Source: Methylorubrum extorquens
GTDB taxonomy: Bacteria > Pseudomonadota > Alphaproteobacteria > Rhizobiales > Beijerinckiaceae
Direction: 5' to 3'
NCBI GenBank assembly: GCA_900234795.1
Contig: LT962688.1
Span: 4,470,001-4,502,000, forward strand
DNA length: 32,000 nt
Of the stretch, positions 19,473 through 31,664 are shown piece by piece (position 1 is the stretch's first letter; every line of letters starts with the position of its first letter). The notes below the pieces were generated by a model that saw only the letters and a list, made by a program, of their open reading frames with translations, made no database searches and was not told where the DNA came from. Position numbers and translations under genes: made by a program.

Positions 19473-19549
19473 GCACCCGTAGCTCAGCTGGATAGAGCGT
19501 TGCCCTCCGAAGGCAAAGGTCACACGTTCGAATCGTGTCGGGTGCGCCA
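19473..19549 (+). tRNA. tRNA-Arg (anticodon CCG), CCA encoded
   Basis: The 77-nt sequence folds as a cloverleaf. Arms: acceptor gcacccg/cgggtgc, D-arm gctc/gagc, anticodon stem ttgcc/ggcaa with loop ctCCGaa, T-arm acacg/cgtgt with loop ttcgaat, and terminal gcca. Confidence 0.95.
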
Positions 19550-19553
19550 ATCA
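19503..19553. repeat. attL: 51-bp direct repeat (tRNA 3' 47 nt plus 4 nt)
   Basis: ccctccgaaggcaaaggtcacacgttcgaatcgtgtcgggtgcgccaatca is identical to 31614-31664. Confidence 0.95.
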
Positions 19554-19656
19554 TAAGCCATTGTTTTCGCTTATGGTTTTCTGACCCTTCCGAAAGCTCC
19601 ATCTAGCGTTCGTGAACAGCCTGTCACGCTTTGTCACAAGCGACGGGTCACGAATC

Positions 19657-20655
19657 ATGGCGACTATCCGAAAGCGGGGCCGTTCCTGGCAGGTTCAGGT
19701 GCGACACGTCGGCTTTCCCACCCGCTCGAAATCGTTCTCTTCCAAGGCTGCCGCAGTCGCGTGGGCGCAGGCTCGGGAGCGGGATTATGCTCCGACTGAT
19801 GCCCCTACCAACCGGTCCGCTAGCGATAGCTTGACGGTCGGAGAACTGTTGCAGCGGTATCAGACTGAGGTAACTGCGCTCAAACGGGGCTACGCTTCGG
19901 AGAACTGCCGCATCAACAACATGCTTGGGCATCCCGTAGCCACCGTCTCAGTCACGAACATCTCATCGCGGCACTTCGCAGAATATCGGAACAATCGACT
20001 CAAAAAAGTCGGCGCGGATACCGTGAGACGTGAACTGACAATCTTTCGCCACTGCTTCGAGATTGCGAAGAAAGAATGGGAAATATCCTTAATCAAAAAT
20101 CCCCTGCATGACATCCGCTTTCCGAATCCAGGACTTCCACGCGAGGAACGGCTGCCGACGGATGGTGAAAGTAGACTAGAGCTAGAAATTGCAGCACTTC
20201 GCAACAGGCATATCGCTGCTGCCATAAAACTAGCTATAGAAACAGGAATGCGCCGAGGTGAGCTGCTGTCGCTAAAGTGGAAGGATGTCGATCTTGTTCA
20301 AGGAACAGCGCGTATACATGAAACGAAGAACGGAAGACCGAGAACGATTCCACTTACTCCGGCCGCCATCCGGGAACTTGAACGTATCGAAAGGAAAGGT
20401 GAACGTGTAATCCCGGTATCTGCAAATGCAATTCATCTTTGCTGGAACCGCATAAGAACACGAGCAGGACTGGGAGGATTGCGCTTCCATGATCTCCGGC
20501 ACGAAGCGATAAGCCGCTTTTTTGAGTTAGGACTCACGGTTCCAGAGGTTGCATTGATATCAGGGCATCGCTCCCTTTCAATGTTGCACCGATATACGCA
20601 TCTGCGACCAGAGAATGTAGCGCGTAAGTTGAGAGCGATGACATTTTCCACGTGA
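19657..20655 (+). CDS. int: tyrosine-type site-specific integrase
   Basis: MATIRKRGRSWQVQVRH is the N-terminal arm/SAM-like region. The catalytic signature is GMRRGELLSLKW (Arg), HDLRHEAISRF (HxxR) and LSMLHRYTH (His/Tyr). The ATG at 19657 is preferred over the track start at 19612. Confidence 0.92.
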   Translation: MATIRKRGRSWQVQVRHVGFPTRSKSFSSKAAAVAWAQARERDYAPTDAPTNRSASDSLTVGELLQRYQTEVTALKRGYASENCRINNMLGHPVATVSVTNISSRHFAEYRNNRLKKVGADTVRRELTIFRHCFEIAKKEWEISLIKNPLHDIRFPNPGLPREERLPTDGESRLELEIAALRNRHIAAAIKLAIETGMRRGELLSLKWKDVDLVQGTARIHETKNGRPRTIPLTPAAIRELERIERKGERVIPVSANAIHLCWNRIRTRAGLGGLRFHDLRHEAISRFFELGLTVPEVALISGHRSLSMLHRYTHLRPENVARKLRAMTFST

Positions 20656-20923: not shown

Positions 20924-23311
20924 TTGAAAAAGTTTAAGTATTGCCCTGCGCCAACCGGTGCTGGAAAGACGTATGCGATCGAAGGACGACTAGCCGAAAT
21001 CAGCCGGGACAGTGAGGCGGCCATTCTACTTCAACCCTCGAAGAACCTTTGCCACCAAACTGCAAGCAACATGGCTACACGCTTTCCCGGCGTGATGGTG
21101 GAGGTTTTCAATCAGGACGTGTGCGGAACGAAAACCGTAGTCCGTCTTGCCGAACATCTCAGAAATCCACCAGACCGTCCTCACGTAATCATCGCTACGT
21201 GGGCCGCGTTCATGATGCTCCCTCACTTCGATCGCCGTGAACGCTTCCACCTGATCTGTGATGAAATACCCCAAGCATTCGTGCCAAAAAGCATCAAGTT
21301 GCCTGACAATCATCACGCAATCACCGATGCATTGGAAATCAAGGACGTTGGACCGATCTACGGACTTGTCACGGCAGGCGACACAACTGTTATTAGAAGA
21401 ATTGCAGAGAACGTGCGCAACGATGCTTTCAATGATCTACTCAGCCCGCTCGCCAAGCATATTCACGAACAGCGATATCTGACCTATGTTGATCGTAAAT
21501 CCTACAACGGACTTCTGAGCGGAAGCAGAGACGATCGCTCACTGAACACCTATTCGATGCTTACACCTTCCGTATTCGATGGATTCCGATCTGTGACATT
21601 GGTCGGTGCGCGGGCGGAGGAAACCATTTTGTTCAAGTGGTTCACCCTGCAAGGCGTCAAGTTCATCCAGGATGACGCATTGTTGAGCAAGCTTCGATAC
21701 CACGATCATCAGAATGGTCGTCTTATCGAGTTTCATTACGCGTCTGAACGGAATTGGTCGCTGACGGAACAGCACAACGATCCATCACTTAGGTCGAAGT
21801 TTGAAGGCGCCGTTTCACAAATGTTCGCAGGTCAGCAATTCGTATGGCAGGACAACGTGTCGAATGAAGCGATGATGTTCAGAGATAATGGTTTGGCGCA
21901 CAACGTCGGCCATTGTGCACATGGTCTTAATCAGTTTCAGCATATTGATAAGGCTGTGATCTTTTCTTCGAAGAATTTCAGCAAACATGAAGGGGGATTT
22001 CTGAGTAACTTCTGTCAGATCAGCCCAACTGAACAACGTATCGCATTAGCTTATCATAGTGCTTATCAGACCTACAATCGCATCTCTGTGCGTGACCCTA
22101 ACAACAGCTCAAGGAAGATAGTGGTTCTGCCTGATCAGCAGAATGCTGCTTGGCAGCAGGAACGATATCCCGGGTCGATTGTCGTTCCACTCGGGATCGA
22201 TTCAAGACCTGTGGAGCGAACGCGGGCTGACAAGGTTCATCGCAATGACGCCGACCGACAGAAAGCGCACCGGGACAAACTAAAGAACCAACAGAAGGAG
22301 ATTATGAGCAATGTGATTGATGCAGTTGATTCAAAGCAGACATATGTATCAGTCGACGACTGTCACGACTACTCCTTTAATACAGTATCTTGTGTGACAT
22401 CCCTTCAAGGTTCCATTATTGCACATAAGCGGGATAAAGAGTCGACAATGATCGTCGGATCAAAAGACGGTTTTGTTGCGAACATGAAGCAAATGTCAAA
22501 AAATGTGCTTGAGTCAAAGGATCGTAACAGGCTGATCAGCCCGGCATTGTTCATCGATCTGGTAGGGTTTGCTTCACGTAGAGCTAAACTCAATGCGTTC
22601 TGCGGCAGAAATATATACCTCGATATCGAAAATGGGACTTTGACGCATAGACAACTGGCGAACATTTTTCCAAGCATCGAAATGCTGGCCTATAGCTCAT
22701 ATAGTCATACGAAGGAGATGCCCCGATACCGAGTTGTGTTGCTTACTAACACGATCATGTCGCCTGACGTGTATACAGCGATTTATAATATGGTTTGTGA
22801 GAGAATTGAACTGGCAGGATACAAGACCGCTTCCGAGCATGATTTCGATGCCAAAGAAAAGGTTCATGGAATTGATCGTAAGCCATATCTGACAGACTTG
22901 TTTTATCTTCCTTGTATGCCTGCGGATGGTGAAGGCTTCTTCCTGCACTATCACAAGCATCGCAAGCCGCTTGACGTGATAGGTTGGTGCAACAACTCCT
23001 ATCCGACACGGTTCGATGAGGTTGAATCTGTCAGCCTTGAGCATCACCTACCGAAACAAAACATCGACAGAGATCATGCCCAACTCTGCGAAGAAGCCTT
23101 GCAGAGGTTCCGCGATCAGACCGTCAATCAGGGTAAGAGCCATAAAGCCCTGCGGGCATTGAATTTCACTCTGCTCGAAGGTGGTGTCGATGACGTGTCT
23201 CGTGAAGTGACGCTGACTCAGGCAGCATATCTGAGCCGTTCACGGGAAGATCGGCTCAGGGATAAGCAGCATATGATGAGGTTTGGTCTGCGAAACCTGA
23301 GCCATCGATAG
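20924..23311 (+). CDS. SF2 helicase-like P-loop NTPase with a C-terminal DxE/SxH domain (prim-pol-like or nuclease-like)
   Basis: TTG start; 795 aa. Helicase motifs: motif I APTGAGKT (20948-20971), Ia ILLQPSKNLCHQT, II LICDEIPQ (21251-21274), and a motif VI-like YQTYNRISVR. The C-terminal region has IYLDIEN (22616-22633), SSYSH (22694-22708) and RYRVVLL. Confidence 0.75.
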   Translation: MKKFKYCPAPTGAGKTYAIEGRLAEISRDSEAAILLQPSKNLCHQTASNMATRFPGVMVEVFNQDVCGTKTVVRLAEHLRNPPDRPHVIIATWAAFMMLPHFDRRERFHLICDEIPQAFVPKSIKLPDNHHAITDALEIKDVGPIYGLVTAGDTTVIRRIAENVRNDAFNDLLSPLAKHIHEQRYLTYVDRKSYNGLLSGSRDDRSLNTYSMLTPSVFDGFRSVTLVGARAEETILFKWFTLQGVKFIQDDALLSKLRYHDHQNGRLIEFHYASERNWSLTEQHNDPSLRSKFEGAVSQMFAGQQFVWQDNVSNEAMMFRDNGLAHNVGHCAHGLNQFQHIDKAVIFSSKNFSKHEGGFLSNFCQISPTEQRIALAYHSAYQTYNRISVRDPNNSSRKIVVLPDQQNAAWQQERYPGSIVVPLGIDSRPVERTRADKVHRNDADRQKAHRDKLKNQQKEIMSNVIDAVDSKQTYVSVDDCHDYSFNTVSCVTSLQGSIIAHKRDKESTMIVGSKDGFVANMKQMSKNVLESKDRNRLISPALFIDLVGFASRRAKLNAFCGRNIYLDIENGTLTHRQLANIFPSIEMLAYSSYSHTKEMPRYRVVLLTNTIMSPDVYTAIYNMVCERIELAGYKTASEHDFDAKEKVHGIDRKPYLTDLFYLPCMPADGEGFFLHYHKHRKPLDVIGWCNNSYPTRFDEVESVSLEHHLPKQNIDRDHAQLCEEALQRFRDQTVNQGKSHKALRALNFTLLEGGVDDVSREVTLTQAAYLSRSREDRLRDKQHMMRFGLRNLSHR

Positions 23312-23507: not shown

Positions 23508-23888
23508 ATGAACTCATCTGAGCCGCTTATGATCAACCTGGACTGCAATGACCTTGAGTCAGTCAGTAAATATCTTTTTTTGACTAAGTTAGTCAAAAAG
23601 ATTGCTGACGTCTGCCCTGACTCGGACGTCATAGTAAGTCAGGATCCAGAATTTCCGACGCTTCAATATTCTATCGACACTGTTCGGATTATGGCCGAAA
23701 CACTCCCGAACTTTCGAACTGCGAATGATTTTATGAGTTATATCGGAATACTTGAGTTCGCCGAGTGCATGAGGCACGTTGCTGTTGCTGCGGGACGCTA
23801 CGGTATGCATCCAGCAGAAACCTACGTGACGAAAATGATACTGACAGTGGAACAAGTAGTTTTTGGAGACGAGGCCGAAGCTGCGTAG
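23508..23888 (+). CDS. hypothetical protein (126 aa)
   Basis: ATG ORF with island-like low GC and a protein-like sequence. No recognisable domain and only a weak RBS. Confidence 0.5.
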   Translation: MNSSEPLMINLDCNDLESVSKYLFLTKLVKKIADVCPDSDVIVSQDPEFPTLQYSIDTVRIMAETLPNFRTANDFMSYIGILEFAECMRHVAVAAGRYGMHPAETYVTKMILTVEQVVFGDEAEAA

Positions 23889-24100: not shown

Positions 24101-24505
24101 TTATCTGTCTTCTGTGCGAGATTTCTTGCTGTCCGCAAGAATTTCAGCAAGTTTGTCCTGGCAGGATCTATCGAGGTAGTAATTGCCGAAAAACCCATTT
24201 GGAAATGTCGAGTTTCCGCTCGCGCGTGCCTTTGCAATGATTTCACTACGAATGTTCTCAAACTCTTTGGCGTGATCCTGCCACAGGCCTCGGTAACGCT
24301 TACCATCTGCTATTCTATTCGCAACAGAGAGAGCATGTTCTACTTCCTTTTCTATGTCGAGTGACGGTAGGCAAGCTTCACGACGCAGAACATTCCTTGC
24401 GAGGACAATCCTGCGGATCTCGGCTTCGTCAACGGCGCCGTTATCCACATTCCAGCCATGACGTTCGGACGCTTTGTCGCCGGGAGTGGGACGATCGTCG
24501 GTCAT
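24101..24505 (-). CDS. hypothetical protein (134 aa), translationally coupled to the upstream ARH-phosphatase gene
   Basis: Its ATG overlaps the upstream stop codon (ATGA, 24502-24505). No domain recognised. Confidence 0.65.
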   Translation of the reverse strand: MTDDRPTPGDKASERHGWNVDNGAVDEAEIRRIVLARNVLRREACLPSLDIEKEVEHALSVANRIADGKRYRGLWQDHAKEFENIRSEIIAKARASGNSTFPNGFFGNYYLDRSCQDKLAEILADSKKSRTEDR

Positions 24506-26055
24506 CGTAGGCTCTCCGTGAACACACGATCCGCTAAGCCCTCGATTCGATCATTCCAGGCCAAACGCTTCCGCCACCGTTCGGGGATGCCTGACAGACC
24601 GTAGAAGGCACCGGCAAGCTGGCCTGTGATGGCTCCTGTGGTGTCGCTGTCGTCCCCGAGGTTCACCGCCTCAGGGACGGCCTCCGAGAAGCTGCCTGAC
24701 GATCCGACGCACCATAGAGCGGCCTCAAGGGAGTGAAGGACGTAACCTGAGGATCGGATATTGTCCCGGTGTTTCCCCTTCCATGATCCCTGGATGATCG
24801 CCTGCACACCATCAGAGAGAGGATGGCCGAAGGATGCGCTCAGAACGTCCGTGAGCGGCTTTCCTTGGATTGCTGCGGCAAGGATCGCGGAGAAGGCTTC
24901 ACATGCGTCTACGGCCTCTTGAGCGCCATGGGTCGTGTAGCTTTGCCGTCGTGCTGCATCCTTCAAGCGGTCGGGATCGTTCCAGTAGCGAACGGCGACG
25001 GGTGACAGGCGCATCAGGCTCCCGTTGCCAGCGGTCATTCTATCCGTCGGACCCGCATGGATGTCTCCGGTCCGTTCAAAGTGGATCAGAGCCGTGGCTG
25101 TCACGTTGCCGATATCGAAGCAGTGCCCCGTTACGGAGTTCTCGCCGTCCCTGAACCACCGGCAGAATCGTCTCAGGAGGTCGCGTTCATCTAAGCCGTT
25201 ACGCGCGATCAGACTGTCCGCGAGGCACAAGGCCATCGACGTGTCATCCGTCCATTCACCCGGCTTAAGGTTGAAGGGGCCGCCGCCAATCATGTCCGTG
25301 ACGGGATCGAAGCTGCCGCGCTGTTCGAACTCTACGGTCGTTCCGATAGCGTCGCCCACGGCCAAGCCGACCAGTGCACCAAGCGCACGGTCACGGATCG
25401 CATCGAGAGTCGTTGAAGGGAGGCGTTCGGGAACTGCTGATTGACCGTGGACGTGACGTTCCTGCTCGTCTGTCTCGATAGCGCCTGGGCGGGCCTCACG
25501 GACCCTCTGAACGGCATCCTCGGGGGTAGCACCAAGTTCGACCAAGAGGCGTGCCGCGATGGTGCCGGCCCGTCCAAGCCCGCCTTTACAATGAACGACG
25601 ACGTTGAAGCCGTTCCGCAAGCGTGACCGGAGCACTTCACCAACCGTCACCCATGCTGCTTCGAACTCGTCAGTAGGAGCCGAAACATCCGGGATCGGCA
25701 GGTGCAACCACTCTATACCGTGGCGCCGGCATTCAACCTCGAGTCCCCCAACCCGTAGGGCTTCGATCTCGTGACCTTCGATCAGGGTGACGAGCGCGGT
25801 AGCTCCCCAATCGGAGATCGCCGTCATGTCCGTCGCCAGATCGCGGTGCCAAATGCCTGTTGCTGAGTCCGTCTGAACTTTTCCGGGACAGAACGTAACA
25901 CCGATCTCGCCGAAGCCATCACCAGCCGGGAGCGTCGCGATCATGAGGGGATGCGTCAGGCTTGTTCGTTGATTTGGCTGACTGTGACGGCCAAAGACCG
26001 TTCGAAAAGTATGGTAGGTATCCTCTGGCATAGTATGAATGCTCCTGCCATCCAT
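24502..26055 (-). CDS. fusion protein: protein-tyrosine/dual-specificity phosphatase fold (CX5R) plus ADP-ribosylglycohydrolase (ARH/DraG family)
   Basis: The N-terminal half has VVVHCKGGLGRAGT (HCxxGxxR P-loop; Cys codon at 25588-25590). The C-terminal half has GLAVGDAIGTTVEF, EWTDDTSMAL and GDDSDTTGAITGQLAGAFYG, the ARH metal-binding signatures. The likely true start is the ATG at 26031 (MPEDTY), preceded by AGGAG. Confidence 0.85.
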   Translation of the reverse strand: MDGRSIHTMPEDTYHTFRTVFGRHSQPNQRTSLTHPLMIATLPAGDGFGEIGVTFCPGKVQTDSATGIWHRDLATDMTAISDWGATALVTLIEGHEIEALRVGGLEVECRRHGIEWLHLPIPDVSAPTDEFEAAWVTVGEVLRSRLRNGFNVVVHCKGGLGRAGTIAARLLVELGATPEDAVQRVREARPGAIETDEQERHVHGQSAVPERLPSTTLDAIRDRALGALVGLAVGDAIGTTVEFEQRGSFDPVTDMIGGGPFNLKPGEWTDDTSMALCLADSLIARNGLDERDLLRRFCRWFRDGENSVTGHCFDIGNVTATALIHFERTGDIHAGPTDRMTAGNGSLMRLSPVAVRYWNDPDRLKDAARRQSYTTHGAQEAVDACEAFSAILAAAIQGKPLTDVLSASFGHPLSDGVQAIIQGSWKGKHRDNIRSSGYVLHSLEAALWCVGSSGSFSEAVPEAVNLGDDSDTTGAITGQLAGAFYGLSGIPERWRKRLAWNDRIEGLADRVFTESLR

Positions 26056-26364: not shown

Positions 26365-26934
26365 TTACGTCTTGTCCGGTTCACTCACAGGAGCGGCGGT
26401 GGCACCAACTCCGTTGCCGATTTCCACTCCGCTATGAGGTGGTACCCCAGTCGGCAACACAGGGGCGGCGGTAGGCTCTTCCACGGTCTGTTCAAGCCCA
26501 GCTTCCACATCGCGGATCAGGTCCGCAAACTCGTACGGCTTCCTGAGCAGGCGTGTGCCTGGTGGTAGCTCGCGTTGAGGATCAGTTACACCGCCCGAGG
26601 TCACGATGATGCCAACAGCAGGCCAGCGGTGATGAACAAGGTGGGCAAGCGCAACACCATCGCCCTCAATGCTCCGCGCCGTAATCAACAGACGCACGGA
26701 GGTTGAACCTTCGAGCACCGCCACTGCCTCGGTGGCAGTGCGGACTTCTATGGTCTGGAAGCCTGCATCCGCCAGCATGTCGGCCGTGACCATACGGATC
26801 AGTTCGTTACCCTCGGCGATGAGGATGGCGATGGGCCTGCAATTAGCACTCAATGAGCTTGCTCCGATCCGAGACGCACGGTTGTCAGGACGAGGAGCTG
26901 GGAGCACTCCGGCATGGCGATGTTGCCGCGCCAT
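26365..26934 (-). CDS. receiver (REC) domain protein lacking the phospho-acceptor aspartate (pseudo-receiver)
   Basis: It aligns to CheY-like receivers: ILIAEGNE occupies the DD pocket. LLITARSIEGDG replaces the usual LLITDxxMPGxxG, with Ala at 26677-26679 in place of the acceptor Asp. IIVTSG (Thr) and LRKPY (Lys) are retained. The C-terminal tail is Pro/Ala-rich. Confidence 0.7.
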   Translation of the reverse strand: MARQHRHAGVLPAPRPDNRASRIGASSLSANCRPIAILIAEGNELIRMVTADMLADAGFQTIEVRTATEAVAVLEGSTSVRLLITARSIEGDGVALAHLVHHRWPAVGIIVTSGGVTDPQRELPPGTRLLRKPYEFADLIRDVEAGLEQTVEEPTAAPVLPTGVPPHSGVEIGNGVGATAAPVSEPDKT

Positions 26935-27236: not shown

Positions 27237-27800
27237 TCAAATCGCCGACTCCTGAGCTTCTGAACCGATGATCCGATAGACCTGCATCCGAGAGCATCCG
27301 AGAGCCTTGGCGATGGCGGCCGGACCATGCCCATCAGCCTTCATCGCCAGCACCTTCTCCCGATCCAGCCGCCGTGCCCCGCCCTTGTAGACACCCTTCG
27401 CCTTCGCGGCCTGGATGCCTTCCTTCTGACGTTCAAGGATGAAGCGTCGTTCCATCTGCGACACCATCCCAAGGACGGTAAGCACGATCCTCCCGCTTTC
27501 ACCGCGGGTTGAAACGTGCGGATCAAGGACGGTCAGATAGGCGCCGCGCTGATCCAGTTCATGGACGATGTTGAGAACGTCGCGCGTATCACGGCCAAGC
27601 CTATCGGCGCGGACCACGACCAGTTCGTCACCCTCGCGGATGAAGTCGAGGATCGCAGCGAGTTCCGTGCGGCCATCGCGAGAGGCCCCGGACACCTTCT
27701 CTGACCGGATCGGCTGGCATCCTTCGGCCTTGAGCCGTTCTATCTGGATGTCGAGCGACTGATCCTGGGCGCTACATCTTCCATATCCGATCCTCGCCAA
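27237..27800 (-). CDS. serine recombinase (resolvase/invertase family)
   Basis: TTG start; 187 aa. It has IGYGRCSAQDQ (catalytic Ser10), VVVRADRLGRD, and the C-terminal HTH AAIAKALGCSRMQVYRII. Confidence 0.9.
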   Translation of the reverse strand: MARIGYGRCSAQDQSLDIQIERLKAEGCQPIRSEKVSGASRDGRTELAAILDFIREGDELVVVRADRLGRDTRDVLNIVHELDQRGAYLTVLDPHVSTRGESGRIVLTVLGMVSQMERRFILERQKEGIQAAKAKGVYKGGARRLDREKVLAMKADGHGPAAIAKALGCSRMQVYRIIGSEAQESAI

Positions 27801-28186: not shown

Positions 28187-31100
28187 TTGTTGAGCGAAAT
28201 GCTACAATCGGATTTGCTGGACTTCTATGATCGTGATGCTCTTCTGGAACGCCTCACAAATGGAATGGCTACATCAGATCGGCAGGTTGTGTTCGTAGTA
28301 GGATCTGCCTTAACATCTCCGCACGCCCCGGGGCACCGAGGCGTTCCGGGCGTTGACGGAGTAATCGAATTAATAGCATCGGAGTTTAATGAAAGACAGC
28401 GCAGTGAGCTGCTCTCTAAACTCGAAGTAGCTGAAAATAAATATCAGGATGCATTCAAGTTTCTTCTTGGTCGCCGCAGCCCGCAAGCAGCCAACGACAT
28501 AGTCAGGCGTGCCGTCGCCTCCGCAAGACGAGACTCCGTGGCCAGAGGCTCGGGTTATACGTTGAATGGGTCCACGAGCGAAGACGCTTGCCGAGCGTTT
28601 GAGTCAGATATTGCAGGCTGGTTTCTAAATCCAGGCGTAAGTGCTCTTGGCGAACTTATGGCAGGTTATCCAGAACGTTTTGGAAAGATTGTTCTAACCA
28701 CCAATTTCGATCCTCTAATTGGCATATCGATAGCAGCAGCAGGCGGAATATCATTCAGAACATTCTTGCATGGCGATGGAAATCTAGCCCATACTCAAGG
28801 TGATGGTGCGCACATCGTCCATCTACACGGCTACTGGTTTGGCTCCGACACTTTGCATACCGGAAGACAGCTTGGTCAACAACGCCCACAACTACGGTCT
28901 TCGCTAGCACATTTGCTTCGAAATAAGATTGTCGTTATTATGGCCTACGGTGGCTGGGACGACGTATTTACTAAAACACTTGTTGATGTCGTGATTGACG
29001 ACAATGCATATCCCGAAATCATCTGGTGTTTCCGAGACACTTCGCCATCAATGCGGCCAAAGCTTTTCGAGTTACTCAAACCTGGCATCGATCGCGGGCG
29101 CGTGTCATTATACGCCGGCATCGACTGCCACAGCTTTCTACCACAGCTTTACGACTCGTGGCTTTCTATTGAAGGCAAATCCCCTAGACGCCGACAGCCT
29201 CAGTTGTCAGTTGAAGCCTTTGACTCGTCTGTCATAGACCAGCCTGATACTGGGGCCAGTATAGAAGCCGAAAAAAAACATACTTCCAAATTCCTTTGCA
29301 GTTTGGAAGAGGACCGTCCTCCGGTGATTGACTTTCTTGTAGGTCGAGACGCCGATTTGAAGGATTTGGAGGCAAAAAGCTATCGGGTAGCATTTGTGAC
29401 TGGCATTGGCGGTCAAGGTAAATCCGCCCTGGTTTCAAAATTTTTCTCAAGCGATTCGACGATCAGCGATTTCGATCACCGGGTGTGGCTTGATTGTAAG
29501 GAACAAAGCGAGCGATTCGAAGATCATCTCGCTCATTTGATAGAGTCTTTAAATGATGGGCGCGCGATGAGCGCAGAGCTTTCCAAACAGCCAGCAGAAG
29601 ATCTTGCTGATTTGTTTTGTTCGCTTACCGCTGATTTCCGCATACTAATCATTTTTGACAACGTAGACCACTACATCGATCTTGAGCGCCTCGCTCTGAC
29701 CGGCGCGGCCAGACTGTTTGTAGAGAGATTTCTTTCGAAAGAGTCTAAAGCCAAGCTTGTTTTTACGTGCAGACCAGATGTTGATGAAGCTGACTTAAGA
29801 TTTTACATCAAGAAACTGGCCGGCATTGATTTGGTCGCTACGCGACGGTTGTTCGATCTGCGTGGCGCTAAAGCTAGTGACGCTTCTCTAGAGCGTGCGT
29901 TCAATGTGACCGGTGGGCATCCCTTGTGGCTCGACCTTCTTGCAGCTCAGGTCGCTCAGCGGATACCTCCGATTGAATTGGATGAATTGCTCGAAAACAT
30001 ATCGGCCGGCACCGGTGAAATCCCAGATGCGACTCTTAGATCGATTTGGACAAGCTTGAAAGATCGAGAGCAAATAGTCTTGCAAGGTCTTGCAGAAACC
30101 CTTCGACCAACTACAGCCATACAGCTCTCAGATTACCTTAGATCAAGAACCAATTTCAAGCAAATATCGAAGGCACTAAAAACGCTGAGAAGTCTCAATT
30201 TGCTCGTAACGAAGGAACTTGACGAAGGCGAGGGGTTTGAACTTCATCCTGTAATTCGGGCTTTCATAAAGAATACTTTCAAACGATCCGAACGCGTATG
30301 GTATATAGACGCAATTTTGTCTATGTACTCGGCTTTCTTTGGCACGCATCTCAAAGACCTCAAGCATCATCCATCATCGTCGATGGTTCGGCATTGGCTC
30401 GAAGGCGCCGAGCTTTGCATAAACGCGGGACATAATTCACAAGCTCTACTGAGGCTGAGCGAAGTGAAAGGGGTTTTTCACAGCAGCGAGCCTCCGGGTG
30501 AATATATTCGAGTCACGCAGATTTTATTGTCAACACTCCCGGTTTCGGAGTGGCAATCGCACAAACACTTCGATGATGTCTTCAAAGATTATCATCGCTG
30601 CCTTGTCAACATGGGCCGCGTAGAAGAAGCAGTAAGTGCGCTGGAACAATACGAGAAGTCGCTGGCGGGGAAGGATGCCCGCTACATAAATTACTGCGAT
30701 ATGCAGACTTACATGAATTGGATGGCTGGTAATTTCATCCCTGCAATTCGTTGGGGAACCGAAGGTTCAGAGCTCAAAAACACTAGCGGAGTCGACACCC
30801 CTTTCAATGCTGAACATAATTTAGCACTGGCGCGTCGCGACTCGGGTTCCGTTGATGTTGCGCTTCAATATTTTCTCAGAGGGGCCAATGTAGCCGATGT
30901 GCTGGATATCGCTAAAGTTGATGCCGATCGTGGAGGGGCGTTTTACGGGAATATTGGTAGATGCTTCCATATTATGGGTCAAATTGACTCAGCGTTGATA
31001 TGTTACGTTAAGTCGGCCAGCTTGATTGATACTGAATTCAGAGAAAATATAACCGAGAATCAAGGATACATAAGGCAATGGATTGGTGAGTTATTGTTGC

Positions 31101-31294
31101 AAAAAGGGCAAAAGCAAGCTGCATTGCATTTTTATATAGCCGCGCTCGAGAAATGGCGTGTCGTATCACCTCCGAAAGCTGCGCGCCTGGAAAAATCTAT
31201 GCAGGCTGATTGGCCCGATGGGCACCCAAGTATCAATCCTGCTCGCGCTGAGGCAGCTGTAATTAGGTGGGTTAATAGTAAGGGCGGTCAGTGA
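28187..31294 (+). CDS. SIR2-like domain / NB-ARC-type STAND ATPase / TPR-like repeat protein (Avs5-like, NLR-like antiphage architecture)
   Basis: SIR2_2-type motifs: VVFVVGSALT, TTNFDPL (28697-28711), HLHG (28820-28831) and AYGGWDDVF. NTPase motifs: Walker A GIGGQGKS (29402-29425), Walker B ILIIFDNVD (29642-29668) and the NB-ARC GxP motif GGHPLWL (29912-29932). The last ~330 aa are helical-repeat/TPR-like. The track start is TTG at 28187; the ATG at 28199 is an alternative. Confidence 0.88.
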   Translation: MLSEMLQSDLLDFYDRDALLERLTNGMATSDRQVVFVVGSALTSPHAPGHRGVPGVDGVIELIASEFNERQRSELLSKLEVAENKYQDAFKFLLGRRSPQAANDIVRRAVASARRDSVARGSGYTLNGSTSEDACRAFESDIAGWFLNPGVSALGELMAGYPERFGKIVLTTNFDPLIGISIAAAGGISFRTFLHGDGNLAHTQGDGAHIVHLHGYWFGSDTLHTGRQLGQQRPQLRSSLAHLLRNKIVVIMAYGGWDDVFTKTLVDVVIDDNAYPEIIWCFRDTSPSMRPKLFELLKPGIDRGRVSLYAGIDCHSFLPQLYDSWLSIEGKSPRRRQPQLSVEAFDSSVIDQPDTGASIEAEKKHTSKFLCSLEEDRPPVIDFLVGRDADLKDLEAKSYRVAFVTGIGGQGKSALVSKFFSSDSTISDFDHRVWLDCKEQSERFEDHLAHLIESLNDGRAMSAELSKQPAEDLADLFCSLTADFRILIIFDNVDHYIDLERLALTGAARLFVERFLSKESKAKLVFTCRPDVDEADLRFYIKKLAGIDLVATRRLFDLRGAKASDASLERAFNVTGGHPLWLDLLAAQVAQRIPPIELDELLENISAGTGEIPDATLRSIWTSLKDREQIVLQGLAETLRPTTAIQLSDYLRSRTNFKQISKALKTLRSLNLLVTKELDEGEGFELHPVIRAFIKNTFKRSERVWYIDAILSMYSAFFGTHLKDLKHHPSSSMVRHWLEGAELCINAGHNSQALLRLSEVKGVFHSSEPPGEYIRVTQILLSTLPVSEWQSHKHFDDVFKDYHRCLVNMGRVEEAVSALEQYEKSLAGKDARYINYCDMQTYMNWMAGNFIPAIRWGTEGSELKNTSGVDTPFNAEHNLALARRDSGSVDVALQYFLRGANVADVLDIAKVDADRGGAFYGNIGRCFHIMGQIDSALICYVKSASLIDTEFRENITENQGYIRQWIGELLLQKGQKQAALHFYIAALEKWRVVSPPKAARLEKSMQADWPDGHPSINPARAEAAVIRWVNSKGGQ

Positions 31295-31613: not shown

Positions 31614-31664
31614 CCCTCCGAAGGCAAAGGTCACACGTTCGAATCGTGTCGGGTGCGCCAATCA
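31614..31664. repeat. attR: 51-bp direct repeat identical to 19503-19553
   Basis: A base-by-base comparison shows 51/51 identity. The flanking bases differ on both sides. Confidence 0.95.

Follow-up and report, generated by a model that had tools for sequence, protein, structure and literature searches.

A 32,000-nucleotide stretch of Methylorubrum extorquens DNA (assembly GCA_900234795.1, contig LT962688.1, positions 4,470,001 to 4,502,000 of the forward strand), referred to here as the window, encodes a large protein that joins a SIR2 domain, a STAND NTPase and a TPR-like repeat region. The SIR2-STAND-TPR gene is located at 28199..31294 on the forward strand (1031 aa plus stop). An earlier note on this DNA had described a single 1035-aa open reading frame (ORF) at 28187-31294; this frame is present exactly as claimed in the ORF list of the window, with 1035 codons counted from a TTG at 28187, and every motif that the note quoted occurs in its translation. 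The ATG at 28199 lies four codons 3' of the TTG. Since public gene calls of the identical protein (P0001, 1031 aa, 100% identical) and an alignment of 108 full-length homologues both begin at the methionine of this ATG, it is most likely the true start, and residue numbers follow the 1031-aa protein unless the 1035-aa ORF numbering is stated. With 995 database relatives, the 3.1-kb ORF is far beyond chance. A scan upstream of the gene for sigma-70-like promoters and terminators found fewer promoter-like sites than in shuffled sequence; it considered a single promoter type, and for an alphaproteobacterium its outcome carries no information.

Both conserved domains named in the earlier note exceed their curated Pfam cut-offs. 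SIR2_2 scores 31.1 bits against a gathering cut-off of 24.5 (residues 168-294) and NB-ARC scores 31.1 bits against 23.5 (residues 396-505; 1035-aa ORF numbering in both cases). The long TPR-like C-terminus proposed in the same note is borne out by several Pfam TPR models with matches at residues 790-946, slightly under their cut-offs, and by a confident helical-repeat AlphaFold2 model. An NCBIfam scan of the protein returned nothing but matches far under threshold, and a single-sequence search of PDB sequences returned MalT alone (0.018); a family profile was needed for more. The full-length AlphaFold2 model, calculated from the 108-sequence alignment, has a mean pLDDT of 90.3 and a pTM of 0.83, and presents the protein as a SIR2 domain, a nucleotide-binding domain (NBD) with a helical domain (HD) and a winged helix domain (WHD), and a helical repeat solenoid. 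A pTM this high for a protein of four parts points to a compact, closed packing. The domain limits given below are our reading of the secondary structure of the model together with the positions of the motifs.

The amino terminal effector is a SIRim-type SIR2 domain (residues 1-325; 28199..29173, +), identified from Pfam, PADLOC, profile matches and residue invariance, with its limits taken from the model. Its sequence hallmarks are TTNFD (residues 167-171, 28697-28711, +), HLHG (residues 208-211, 28820-28831, +) and GGWDD (residues 251-255, 28949-28963, +); T167, T168, N169, F170, D171, H210, G211, W253 and D255 are invariant in the 108 homologues. The catalytic pair is assigned to N169 (28703-28705, +) and H210 (28826-28828, +). 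On this point the earlier note requires correction: the codon it gave for the histidine of HLHG, 28820-28822, encodes H208, and the canonical catalytic histidine is the one before the glycine, H210, which aligns with H206 of FAM118B.

A search with a profile of the SIR2 domain alone identified human FAM118B as the best match (1.3e-8), followed by the SIR2-APAZ protein of SPARSA (5e-6). In the profile alignment, TTNFD pairs with TTNFD in both FAM118B and the SPARSA SIR2 domain, vvHlHG aligns to VLHIHG and kIHG, respectively, and GW..DD is common as well. The head is also matched by the PADLOC model for Argonaute-associated SIR2 (1.8e-10). N169 and H210, which constitute the Asn/His pair of SIRim domains, do not vary in the homologue alignments. 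In FAM118B, N163 and H206 were mutated as the homologous catalytic residues in a study reporting NADase activity (10.1101/2024.09.18.613514), and in the SIR2 domain of EfAvs5 an asparagine (N180) replaces the catalytic histidine (PMC11897194). Judged by its residues, the head is a canonical SIRim-type NADase domain, and it is predicted to act as such. It is followed by a variable linker (residues 326-365; 29174..29293, +) that was modelled with low confidence (pLDDT 48-59) and has a mean pairwise identity of 0.14 with zero invariant columns.

The central NTPase module (NOD) is of the NB-ARC / PH0952-Apaf-1 type and spans residues 366-695 (29294..30283, +). The NBD (residues 366-543) contains the Walker A motif GIGGQGKS (residues 402-409, 29402-29425, +) with K408 at 29420-29422, a codon that the earlier note gave correctly; IIFDNVD (residues 484-490, 29648-29668, +) with the Walker B residues D487-N488-x-D490 (29657-29668); and a sensor-1 T-C-R525 (29765-29773). 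The HD (residues 544-606) contributes GGHPLWL (residues 572-578, 29912-29932, +), within which GHPLW lies at 29915-29929, and the WHD (residues 607-695) contributes an MHD-like L682-H683-P684 (30242-30250). Invariance in the 108 homologues extends to G402, G405, G407, K408, D487, N488 and D490 of the P-loop and Walker B, and to T523, C524, R525, G573, W577 and L682-H683-P684 in the rest of the NTPase. The complete motif set (GIGGQGKS, FDNVD, FTCRP, GGHPLW, ELHP) is invariant both in the family and across the eight effector classes described below; the last three motifs are taken here to be the counterparts of the TTR, GLPL and MHD motifs of NB-ARC proteins.

When PDB sequences were searched with the family profile, PH0952 from Pyrococcus horikoshii was identified first (2.5e-12), then NRC2, Roq1 and ZAR1, and also CED-4; EfAvs5 was absent from these matches even at E = 1. 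No Pfam match to nSTAND3 was found for the protein at E<=1, and TIR- and Mrr-headed relatives cover positions 15-227 of the 248 positions of the NB-ARC model. A Foldseek search with the full model agrees: PH0952 (PDB: 6mfv) ranks first (E 3e-15) with 684 aligned columns over NOD and TPR and a TM-score of 0.59 when normalised to the target, at an identity of only ~15%. EfAvs5 (PDB: 9jap) is second (E 3e-12) with a TM-score of 0.19-0.24 and 11% identity, and further matches include Apaf-1, CED-4, MalT, plant resistosomes, the SPARSA SIR2 protein, DSR2 and ThsA. With STAND/NLR proteins and SIR2 NADases as the best PDB fold matches, the three-part SIR2-STAND-repeat architecture that had been read from the sequence holds. 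By its motifs and profile matches, the NTPase is assigned to the NB-ARC / AP-ATPase-PH0952 group and not to nSTAND3.

The remainder of the protein (residues 696-1031, ~336 aa; 30284..31291, +) is composed of an arm and a compact TPR-like solenoid with 18 helices in all, and is presumed to be the sensor. Residues 694-1031 modelled alone with AlphaFold2 have a pLDDT of 95.4. A Foldseek search with the sensor model produced only generic TPR proteins, namely designed consensus TPRs, LGN, Rap, OGT, PEX5 and KLC, with a best E-value of 6e-5 and TM-scores of 0.35-0.48. Neither an Avs sensor chain, including that of Avs5, nor a SAMD9 sensor chain is among the 50 best sensor-only fold matches listed, consistent with the earlier view that the C-terminal third could be tied to no established sensor. 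A fold search of BFVD identified generic AAA+ and TPR matches only. Many tryptophan, tyrosine and arginine residues of this third are also invariant in the 108 homologues, and the signature residues R771, W841, N918, G920, R921, W961 and W986 are conserved across all effector classes.

The NOD and the sensor are found with many different heads. Residues 600-1031 were searched against 1.84 billion cluster representatives, which identified 557 representatives (50% cluster level), of which 187 have E <= 1e-30. Ninety-eight representatives have a complete NTPase; 49 of these carry the SIR2 domain described above and 48 another head. Clustering together with Pfam and PADLOC scans defined at least eight head classes. 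The alternatives include a second, ThsA/Dsr1-like SIR2 (2.3e-25 in PADLOC), a ThsB-like TIR (5.7e-56), a calcineurin-like phosphoesterase (Metallophos, PDC-S60-like, 4.9e-34), Mrr_cat, HD-CE, a Schlafen AlbA_2 domain (PDC-S50-like) and an unannotated domain of 180 aa. The NOD and sensor signature residues are kept in all head classes. The SIR2 head is in turn fused elsewhere to other STAND types, nSTAND1 and nSTAND5, so that head and chassis are both independently mobile modules. As judged from these sequences, the NOD and sensor make up one chassis with exchangeable heads, which is a hallmark of Avs/NLR-type defence proteins, and this modularity is the strongest argument for an immune role of the SIR2-STAND-TPR protein.

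Examples of the head on other proteins come from the metagenome-assembled genome of a member of the Marinacidobacterales (L062, 7989-11711) and from three further loci (L075, L077 and L065), where it is found on nSTAND5, on nSTAND1 or on a DUF4062/NPHP3_N-containing protein. A chassis relative with the ThsA/Dsr1-like SIR2 head is encoded on the conjugative Pantoea ananatis plasmid pOC5aB (L085, NZ_CP059085.1, 5158-8049; WP_207806739.1, 963 aa), where it adjoins a tyrosine integrase and lies ~5.6 kb from a retron-type HNH endonuclease gene.

In a PADLOC scan of 18 relatives and effector variants, matches were confined to the heads and no model covered the NOD-plus-sensor chassis, so no named system can be assigned. 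Nine proteins were scanned with PADLOC v2.0.0; this protein and five full-length SIR2-type relatives matched the Argonaute-associated SIR2 model and, beyond it, only a marginal Avs4 (0.011), with the presence of an Avs5 model in the library unconfirmed. In the PADLOC check suggested by the earlier note, the SIR2 head was recognised and the whole protein was not recognised as a system. As a whole, the computational checks proposed in that note supported it.

Relatives of the full protein are numerous, with 995 at E <= 1e-3 among the scored candidates (best E = 0). Almost all of the best 120 are ~1030 aa in length, with 88-100% query coverage and 42-61% identity. Conservation along the protein is even: the mean pairwise identity is 0.54 in the SIR2 domain, 0.47 in the NBD, 0.53 in the WHD and 0.44 in the TPR region, and only the linker varies. 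A relative is encoded in 302 stretches of species-representative genomes, which belong to Alphaproteobacteria, Acidobacteriota, Actinomycetota, Verrucomicrobiota, Bacteroidota, Gemmatimonadota, Dormibacterota and others, a patchy spread over phyla that is typical of horizontally moving genes. Homologues occur on plasmids, one from Granulicella and one from Rhizobium. A tblastn search of 50,697 phage genomes gave zero matches, and IMG/VR contains one full-length relative. Public annotation of the relatives reads 'SIR2 family protein' or 'NB-ARC domain-containing protein'. The copy on the Rhizobium phaseoli plasmid (NZ_CP013588.1, 117705-120508) is matched in two pieces and annotated as two coding sequences ('ATP-binding protein' and 'SIR2 family protein'), and at another locus (L021, 8001-8990) the first 990 nt of the copy contain 12 stop codons in the expected frame.

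No conserved partner gene was identified. The 132 flanking genes of 33 loci contain no family that is seen more than three times, nor does one recur in three annotated neighbourhoods, and the SIR2-STAND-TPR gene therefore appears to act alone. ADP_ribosyl_GH, the family of an island gene discussed below, is absent from the 25 most frequent neighbour families of the 33 loci. Some of the neighbours strongly match models of type I and type II restriction-modification, BREX PglX, Lamassu LmuA, MADS, reverse transcriptase and Cas1. A Sphingomonas copy adjoins a gene resembling AbiC (Pfam putAbiC) as well as a series of small genes, most of which lack annotation.

Within the window, the gene is the last one of a 12.1 kb island. 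The integration target is a tRNA-Arg gene with anticodon CCG (19473..19549, +; ARAGORN). The left copy of a 50-bp direct repeat, attL (19504..19553, +), consists of the last 46 nt of the tRNA and 4 nt beyond it, and the right copy, attR (31615..31664, +), marks the island end 321 bp 3' of the SIR2-STAND-TPR stop codon. The repeats are perfect and present in exactly two copies in the window, with 0 expected in shuffles. A tyrosine integrase gene (19612..20655, +; Pfam Phage_integrase 1.9e-26) follows attL. The G+C content falls from 0.61-0.71 in the host to 0.46-0.50 in the island, and a PAS histidine kinase encoded in the window is 98% identical to an M. extorquens protein. That the gene is island cargo, as had been claimed in the earlier note, is confirmed by the tRNA-Arg, the integrase, the perfect att repeats and a drop in G+C from ~0.65 to ~0.48.

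The identical protein was found in 13 independent sequencing-run assemblies (ERR28498xx, ERR2831471). The contigs bearing the gene in these assemblies are at most 12,141 bp long, and the longest spans the entire island and breaks inside both repeats. Three long Logan contigs (L001-L003) end exactly at attR, 370 bp past the stop codon, and two shorter ones end 358 bp past it. Since the contigs break at or near the att repeats, the island is a recurrent, strain-specific insertion.

The island is a mosaic in G+C content, with a segment of 0.54-0.61 at 24-28 kb between segments of 0.46-0.50 (20-24 kb) and 0.47-0.50 (28-31 kb). A serine resolvase gene (27237-27800, -) and an orphan gene for a REC-like protein (26365-26934, -) lie between G+C segments and, because of this arrangement, the sequence suggests that at least two modules were put together to form the island. 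Within 24101-26055 on the reverse strand is a gene for a 517-aa fusion of a PTP-SAK ('Swiss Army Knife' dual-specificity) phosphatase (1.7e-13) and an ADP-ribosylglycohydrolase (ARH, 4.3e-80). It is abutted by a 134-aa ORF (24101-24505, -) that has four bases (24502-24505) in common with its end. The nearest match of the ARH part is PDB 6dre (8e-76), an entry deposited under the name ADP-ribosyl-(dinitrogen reductase) hydrolase, which we take to be the Tri1 immunity protein. The island thereby carries, besides the SIR2 gene, a module linked to NAD/ADP-ribose. A functional link between the SIR2-STAND-TPR gene and the ARH-phosphatase gene was considered and rejected as unsupported: the two are not co-conserved, as judged from the 25 most frequent neighbour families of the 33 loci, they lie on opposite strands and they belong to different G+C segments. 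A 795-aa protein (20924-23311, +) carries DEAD/ResIII helicase motifs in its N-terminal ~100 residues (2.4e-6); beyond these residues no family was matched, and PADLOC and PDB sequence searches gave no match. Its gene lies in the lowest-G+C part of the island, near a 126-aa ORF (23508-23888), and could represent another cargo function. PADLOC found nothing in the other island genes.

Considering these results together, the gene probably encodes a stand-alone, NLR-like abortive-infection protein of an uncharacterised family of the antiviral-STAND type. In keeping with antiviral STAND proteins in the broad sense, effector, NOD and sensor are joined in one protein that has no conserved partner, and one chassis bears interchangeable defence-type heads. 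The three-domain anatomy, the conservation of catalytic and switch residues, the fold relations, the partner-free gene, the swapping of heads and the integrative island are direct observations. NADase activity, oligomerisation, a trigger and protection from phage would be expected from the architecture, the conserved catalytic residues and the swapping of effectors.

The mechanism proposed beyond the anatomy is modelled on the relatives Avs5 (PMC11897194, PMC12931631), FAM118B and SPARSA and on the STAND literature (PMC6468293). At rest, the protein would be a closed monomer in which the arm and the TPR solenoid pack on an ADP-bound NOD, as in PH0952, MalT and Apaf-1. During infection, a ligand derived from the infection would bind the TPR solenoid; by analogy, this would most probably be a conserved phage protein or peptide. 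Binding would lift autoinhibition and permit the exchange of ADP for ATP at the P-loop, whereupon the NOD would open and then oligomerise. The SIR2 domains gathered by oligomerisation would hydrolyse NAD+ through the N169/H210 site, and the resulting depletion of NAD+ would halt the growth of the infected cell before phage progeny are released.

Several points weigh against this interpretation. NB-ARC proteins usually have a second acidic residue in Walker B (DD or DE). Here, Walker B reads D-N-x-D and the second acidic position is occupied without exception by an asparagine, both in the family and across the eight effector classes, for which reason ATP hydrolysis may be atypical, slow or absent. 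The sensor is short at ~336 aa and its mean pairwise identity is 0.44 as against 0.47-0.54 elsewhere in the protein; read from the alignment, conservation this near to even offers no hint of an arms race. Most homologues are immediately flanked by ordinary metabolic or housekeeping genes, with known defence genes in the minority (raw matches, counted without a background rate). PADLOC v2 recognises the SIR2 head and not the protein as a system, and no paper naming or testing the family came up in literature searches that used homologue accessions and terms for the architecture. The closest solved relatives of the chassis, PH0952 and MalT, regulate transcription, and MalT senses a small molecule (PMC6468293).

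This last point leads to a different and rather doubtful reading, that the protein is a STAND-controlled switch for cell death or growth arrest whose purpose is not primarily antiviral. Such a switch could serve the island as an addiction or competition module, or could respond to a small molecule, a peptide or a disturbance of a host protein, with the TPR solenoid binding a cellular or metabolite ligand as in MalT-type STAND proteins. Not only are PH0952 and MalT regulators, the latter being induced by maltotriose (PMC6468293), but the sensor-only fold matches include the peptide-binding TPR proteins LGN, Rap, PEX5 and KLC. Across phyla, conservation of the compact sensor is even, the neighbours of the homologues are mostly housekeeping genes, and the best NCBIfam match of the NTPase, a very weak one, is to the TPR protein in the FxSxx-COOH peptide system (PMC7159879). 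The repertoire of heads, however, is that of immune STAND proteins (SIR2, TIR, Mrr, HD, Metallophos, Schlafen), no identified head is a DNA-binding domain, and several heads match the defence models ThsB, ThsA and PDC-S60 strongly (5.7e-56, 2.3e-25 and 4.9e-34, respectively). The gene is also mobile and patchily distributed in the manner of defence genes, and sensing the disturbance of a host protein would still count as immunity.

It is improbable that the protein is an immune STAND whose head does something other than deplete NAD+ in bulk, either ADP-ribosylating a protein or nucleic acid or producing a NAD-derived signal, with the ARH-phosphatase of the island reversing the modification or processing the product. 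The PTP-SAK-ARH fusion is indeed encoded on the same island and its ARH part matches PDB 6dre at 8e-76. The SIR2 fold, as in the sirtuins, supports ADP-ribosyl transfer as well as hydrolysis. The ARH gene was nevertheless not found beside homologues elsewhere, as judged from the most frequent neighbour families of the 33 loci, and on the island it is on the other strand, past the resolvase and the REC-like gene, in a different G+C segment. SPARSA, ThsA and DSR2 are NADases. Two close SIR2 relatives, FAM118B and Avs5, are likewise reported to be NADases (10.1101/2024.09.18.613514, PMC11897194).

Even less can be said for the protein being an orthologue of Avs5, in which SIR2-NOD dimers form filaments and an early phage protein is the trigger. 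The two do share the order of parts (SIR2, STAND, helical repeats), EfAvs5 is the second-best Foldseek match of the full model, and some homologues have weak precomputed matches to nSTAND3 (PF20720). Against this, the TM-score to 9jap is 0.19-0.24 at 11% identity compared with a target-normalised 0.59 to PH0952, and the family profile that finds PH0952, NRC2, Roq1 and ZAR1 misses EfAvs5. NB-ARC is above its cut-off and nSTAND3 is without a match; the PADLOC Avs models are silent except for the marginal Avs4. The catalytic histidine is kept where EfAvs5 has an asparagine (PMC11897194), the SIR2 domain is nearest to FAM118B and SPARSA, and the 50 best sensor fold matches listed include no Avs5 or SAMD9 sensor. 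Membership in Avs5 was rejected on the NTPase, the sensor and the SIR2 residues, with the presence of an N-terminal SIR2 domain as such agreeing with it.

Least probable of all is that the gene has no function at present and is carried as inert or decaying cargo: the DNA is foreign (G+C 0.47-0.50 in a host of 0.61-0.71), no convincing sigma-70-like promoter lies upstream and some relatives look disrupted (the R. phaseoli plasmid copy and L021), but the frame is open over 1031 codons with all family-invariant catalytic and switch residues intact, the identical protein occurs in 13 independent assemblies, and the promoter scan addressed one promoter type only.

If the protein is a stand-alone abortive-infection factor as preferred here, it is an example of an untested bacterial NLR-like immune family that is frequent among Alphaproteobacteria and Acidobacteriota of soils, groups whose defence biology has received little study. 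A short, conserved TPR sensor common to eight effector classes points to one conserved trigger, and its identification would extend the Avs catalogue by a sensing specificity. A broader proposal, which should be regarded as speculative, joins several of these observations. It would have a PH0952/Apaf-1-like NOD and a compact TPR define a large, cross-phylum and mainly soil-dwelling bacterial NLR family whose evenly conserved TPR, of a peptide-binding type, senses a trigger other than the large phage protein folds to which the known Avs sensors respond. The trigger might be a protein terminus or short peptide, a nucleotide or small molecule produced in the course of infection, or the condition of one of the host's own proteins. 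In the same proposal, the SIR2 domain, nearest to human FAM118B among solved structures, would mark the bacterial lineage behind the eukaryotic SIRim-NLR and FAM118 proteins. The gain for annotation is modest and consists of a label, candidate SIR2-STAND defence protein, that sets the gene apart from Avs5.

Among known systems, the SIR2-STAND Avs5 proteins EfAvs5 and PaAvs5 provide the first comparison. Avs5 is a NADase that is switched on by a phage protein and by assembly (PMC11897194, PMC12931631). Like the protein described here, it is one polypeptide with a SIR2 domain at the N-terminus, a STAND NTPase in the centre and a helical-repeat sensor at the C-terminus, and the logic to be expected is the same, leading from a trigger through assembly and NADase activity to the depletion of NAD+ (PMC11897194, PMC12931631). 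The differences lie in each part. Avs5 is defined with nSTAND3 (PMC12931631) and its NTPase is SAMD9-like, whereas the NTPase here is of the NB-ARC / PH0952-Apaf-1 type; there is no profile link between the sequences and the global TM-score is as low as given above. The SIR2 domain keeps the histidine that is an asparagine in EfAvs5 and is nearer to FAM118B and SPARSA. The repeats of Avs5 are poorly conserved (PMC12931631), in contrast to the compact, well-conserved TPR solenoid seen here, and Avs5 proteins are ~820-830 aa in length as opposed to ~1030 aa.

For the chassis, the closest parallels are PH0952, MalT and Apaf-1, with which the protein has in common the NOD-arm-repeat layout, the P-loop, a TTR-like sensor 1, GxP and an MHD-like histidine. 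PH0952 is a sister of the Apaf-1 clade in which both the arm and the TPR sensor keep the ADP-bound NOD closed, and this double autoinhibition is the likely resting mechanism here as well (PMC6468293). The effectors of PH0952 and MalT bind DNA, whereas the head is a NADase-type SIR2 domain in this protein and a nuclease, TIR or HD domain in its relatives. For the head itself, FAM118B and the SIR2-APAZ protein of SPARSA are the closest relatives, with TTNFD, HxHG and GW..DD all aligned. SPARSA is turned on by assembly. NAD processing by FAM118B has likewise been linked to the formation of head-to-tail filaments (PMC12700824). These two are controlled by filaments alone or by an Argonaute-guide complex, while the SIR2 domain described here is fused to a STAND NTPase and a TPR sensor.

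More generally, Avs1-4, Avs7-24 and the bacterial NACHT proteins have the same tripartite plan, operate as single genes and present swappable N-terminal effectors on a NOD-plus-sensor chassis. Sensors in these families are as a rule TPR-like and helical, and those analysed for the described Avs families are at least 400 aa (PMC13581612), so the sensor here is much shorter; nor is there a PADLOC Avs model match beyond the marginal Avs4. SIR2-STAND proteins and ~200 defence-associated STAND clades have already been described (PMC11897194, PMC12931631, PMC13581612). The SIR2-STAND-TPR family may well be one of the 589 clades, with 684 sensor clusters, of a recent STAND survey (versions PMC12803255 and PMC13581612).

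In eukaryotes, the fungal and animal SIRim-NLRs (SIR2-NACHT/NB-ARC with TPR or ankyrin repeats) and the plant TIR-NB-ARC-LRR receptors also combine a NAD-consuming head with an NB-ARC module and repeats (10.1101/2024.09.18.613514), and the TIR-headed relatives of the chassis are in effect TIR-NB-ARC-TPR proteins. The pairing of an NTPase of the Apaf-1/plant-NLR type with a FAM118B-like SIR2 domain is nearer to these eukaryotic NLR and sirtuin immune proteins than the characterised Avs5 is. This likeness may reflect repeated assembly from the same modules, and the SIR2-STAND-TPR protein is most likely one more, uncharacterised member of a class of bacterial immune proteins that is already known.

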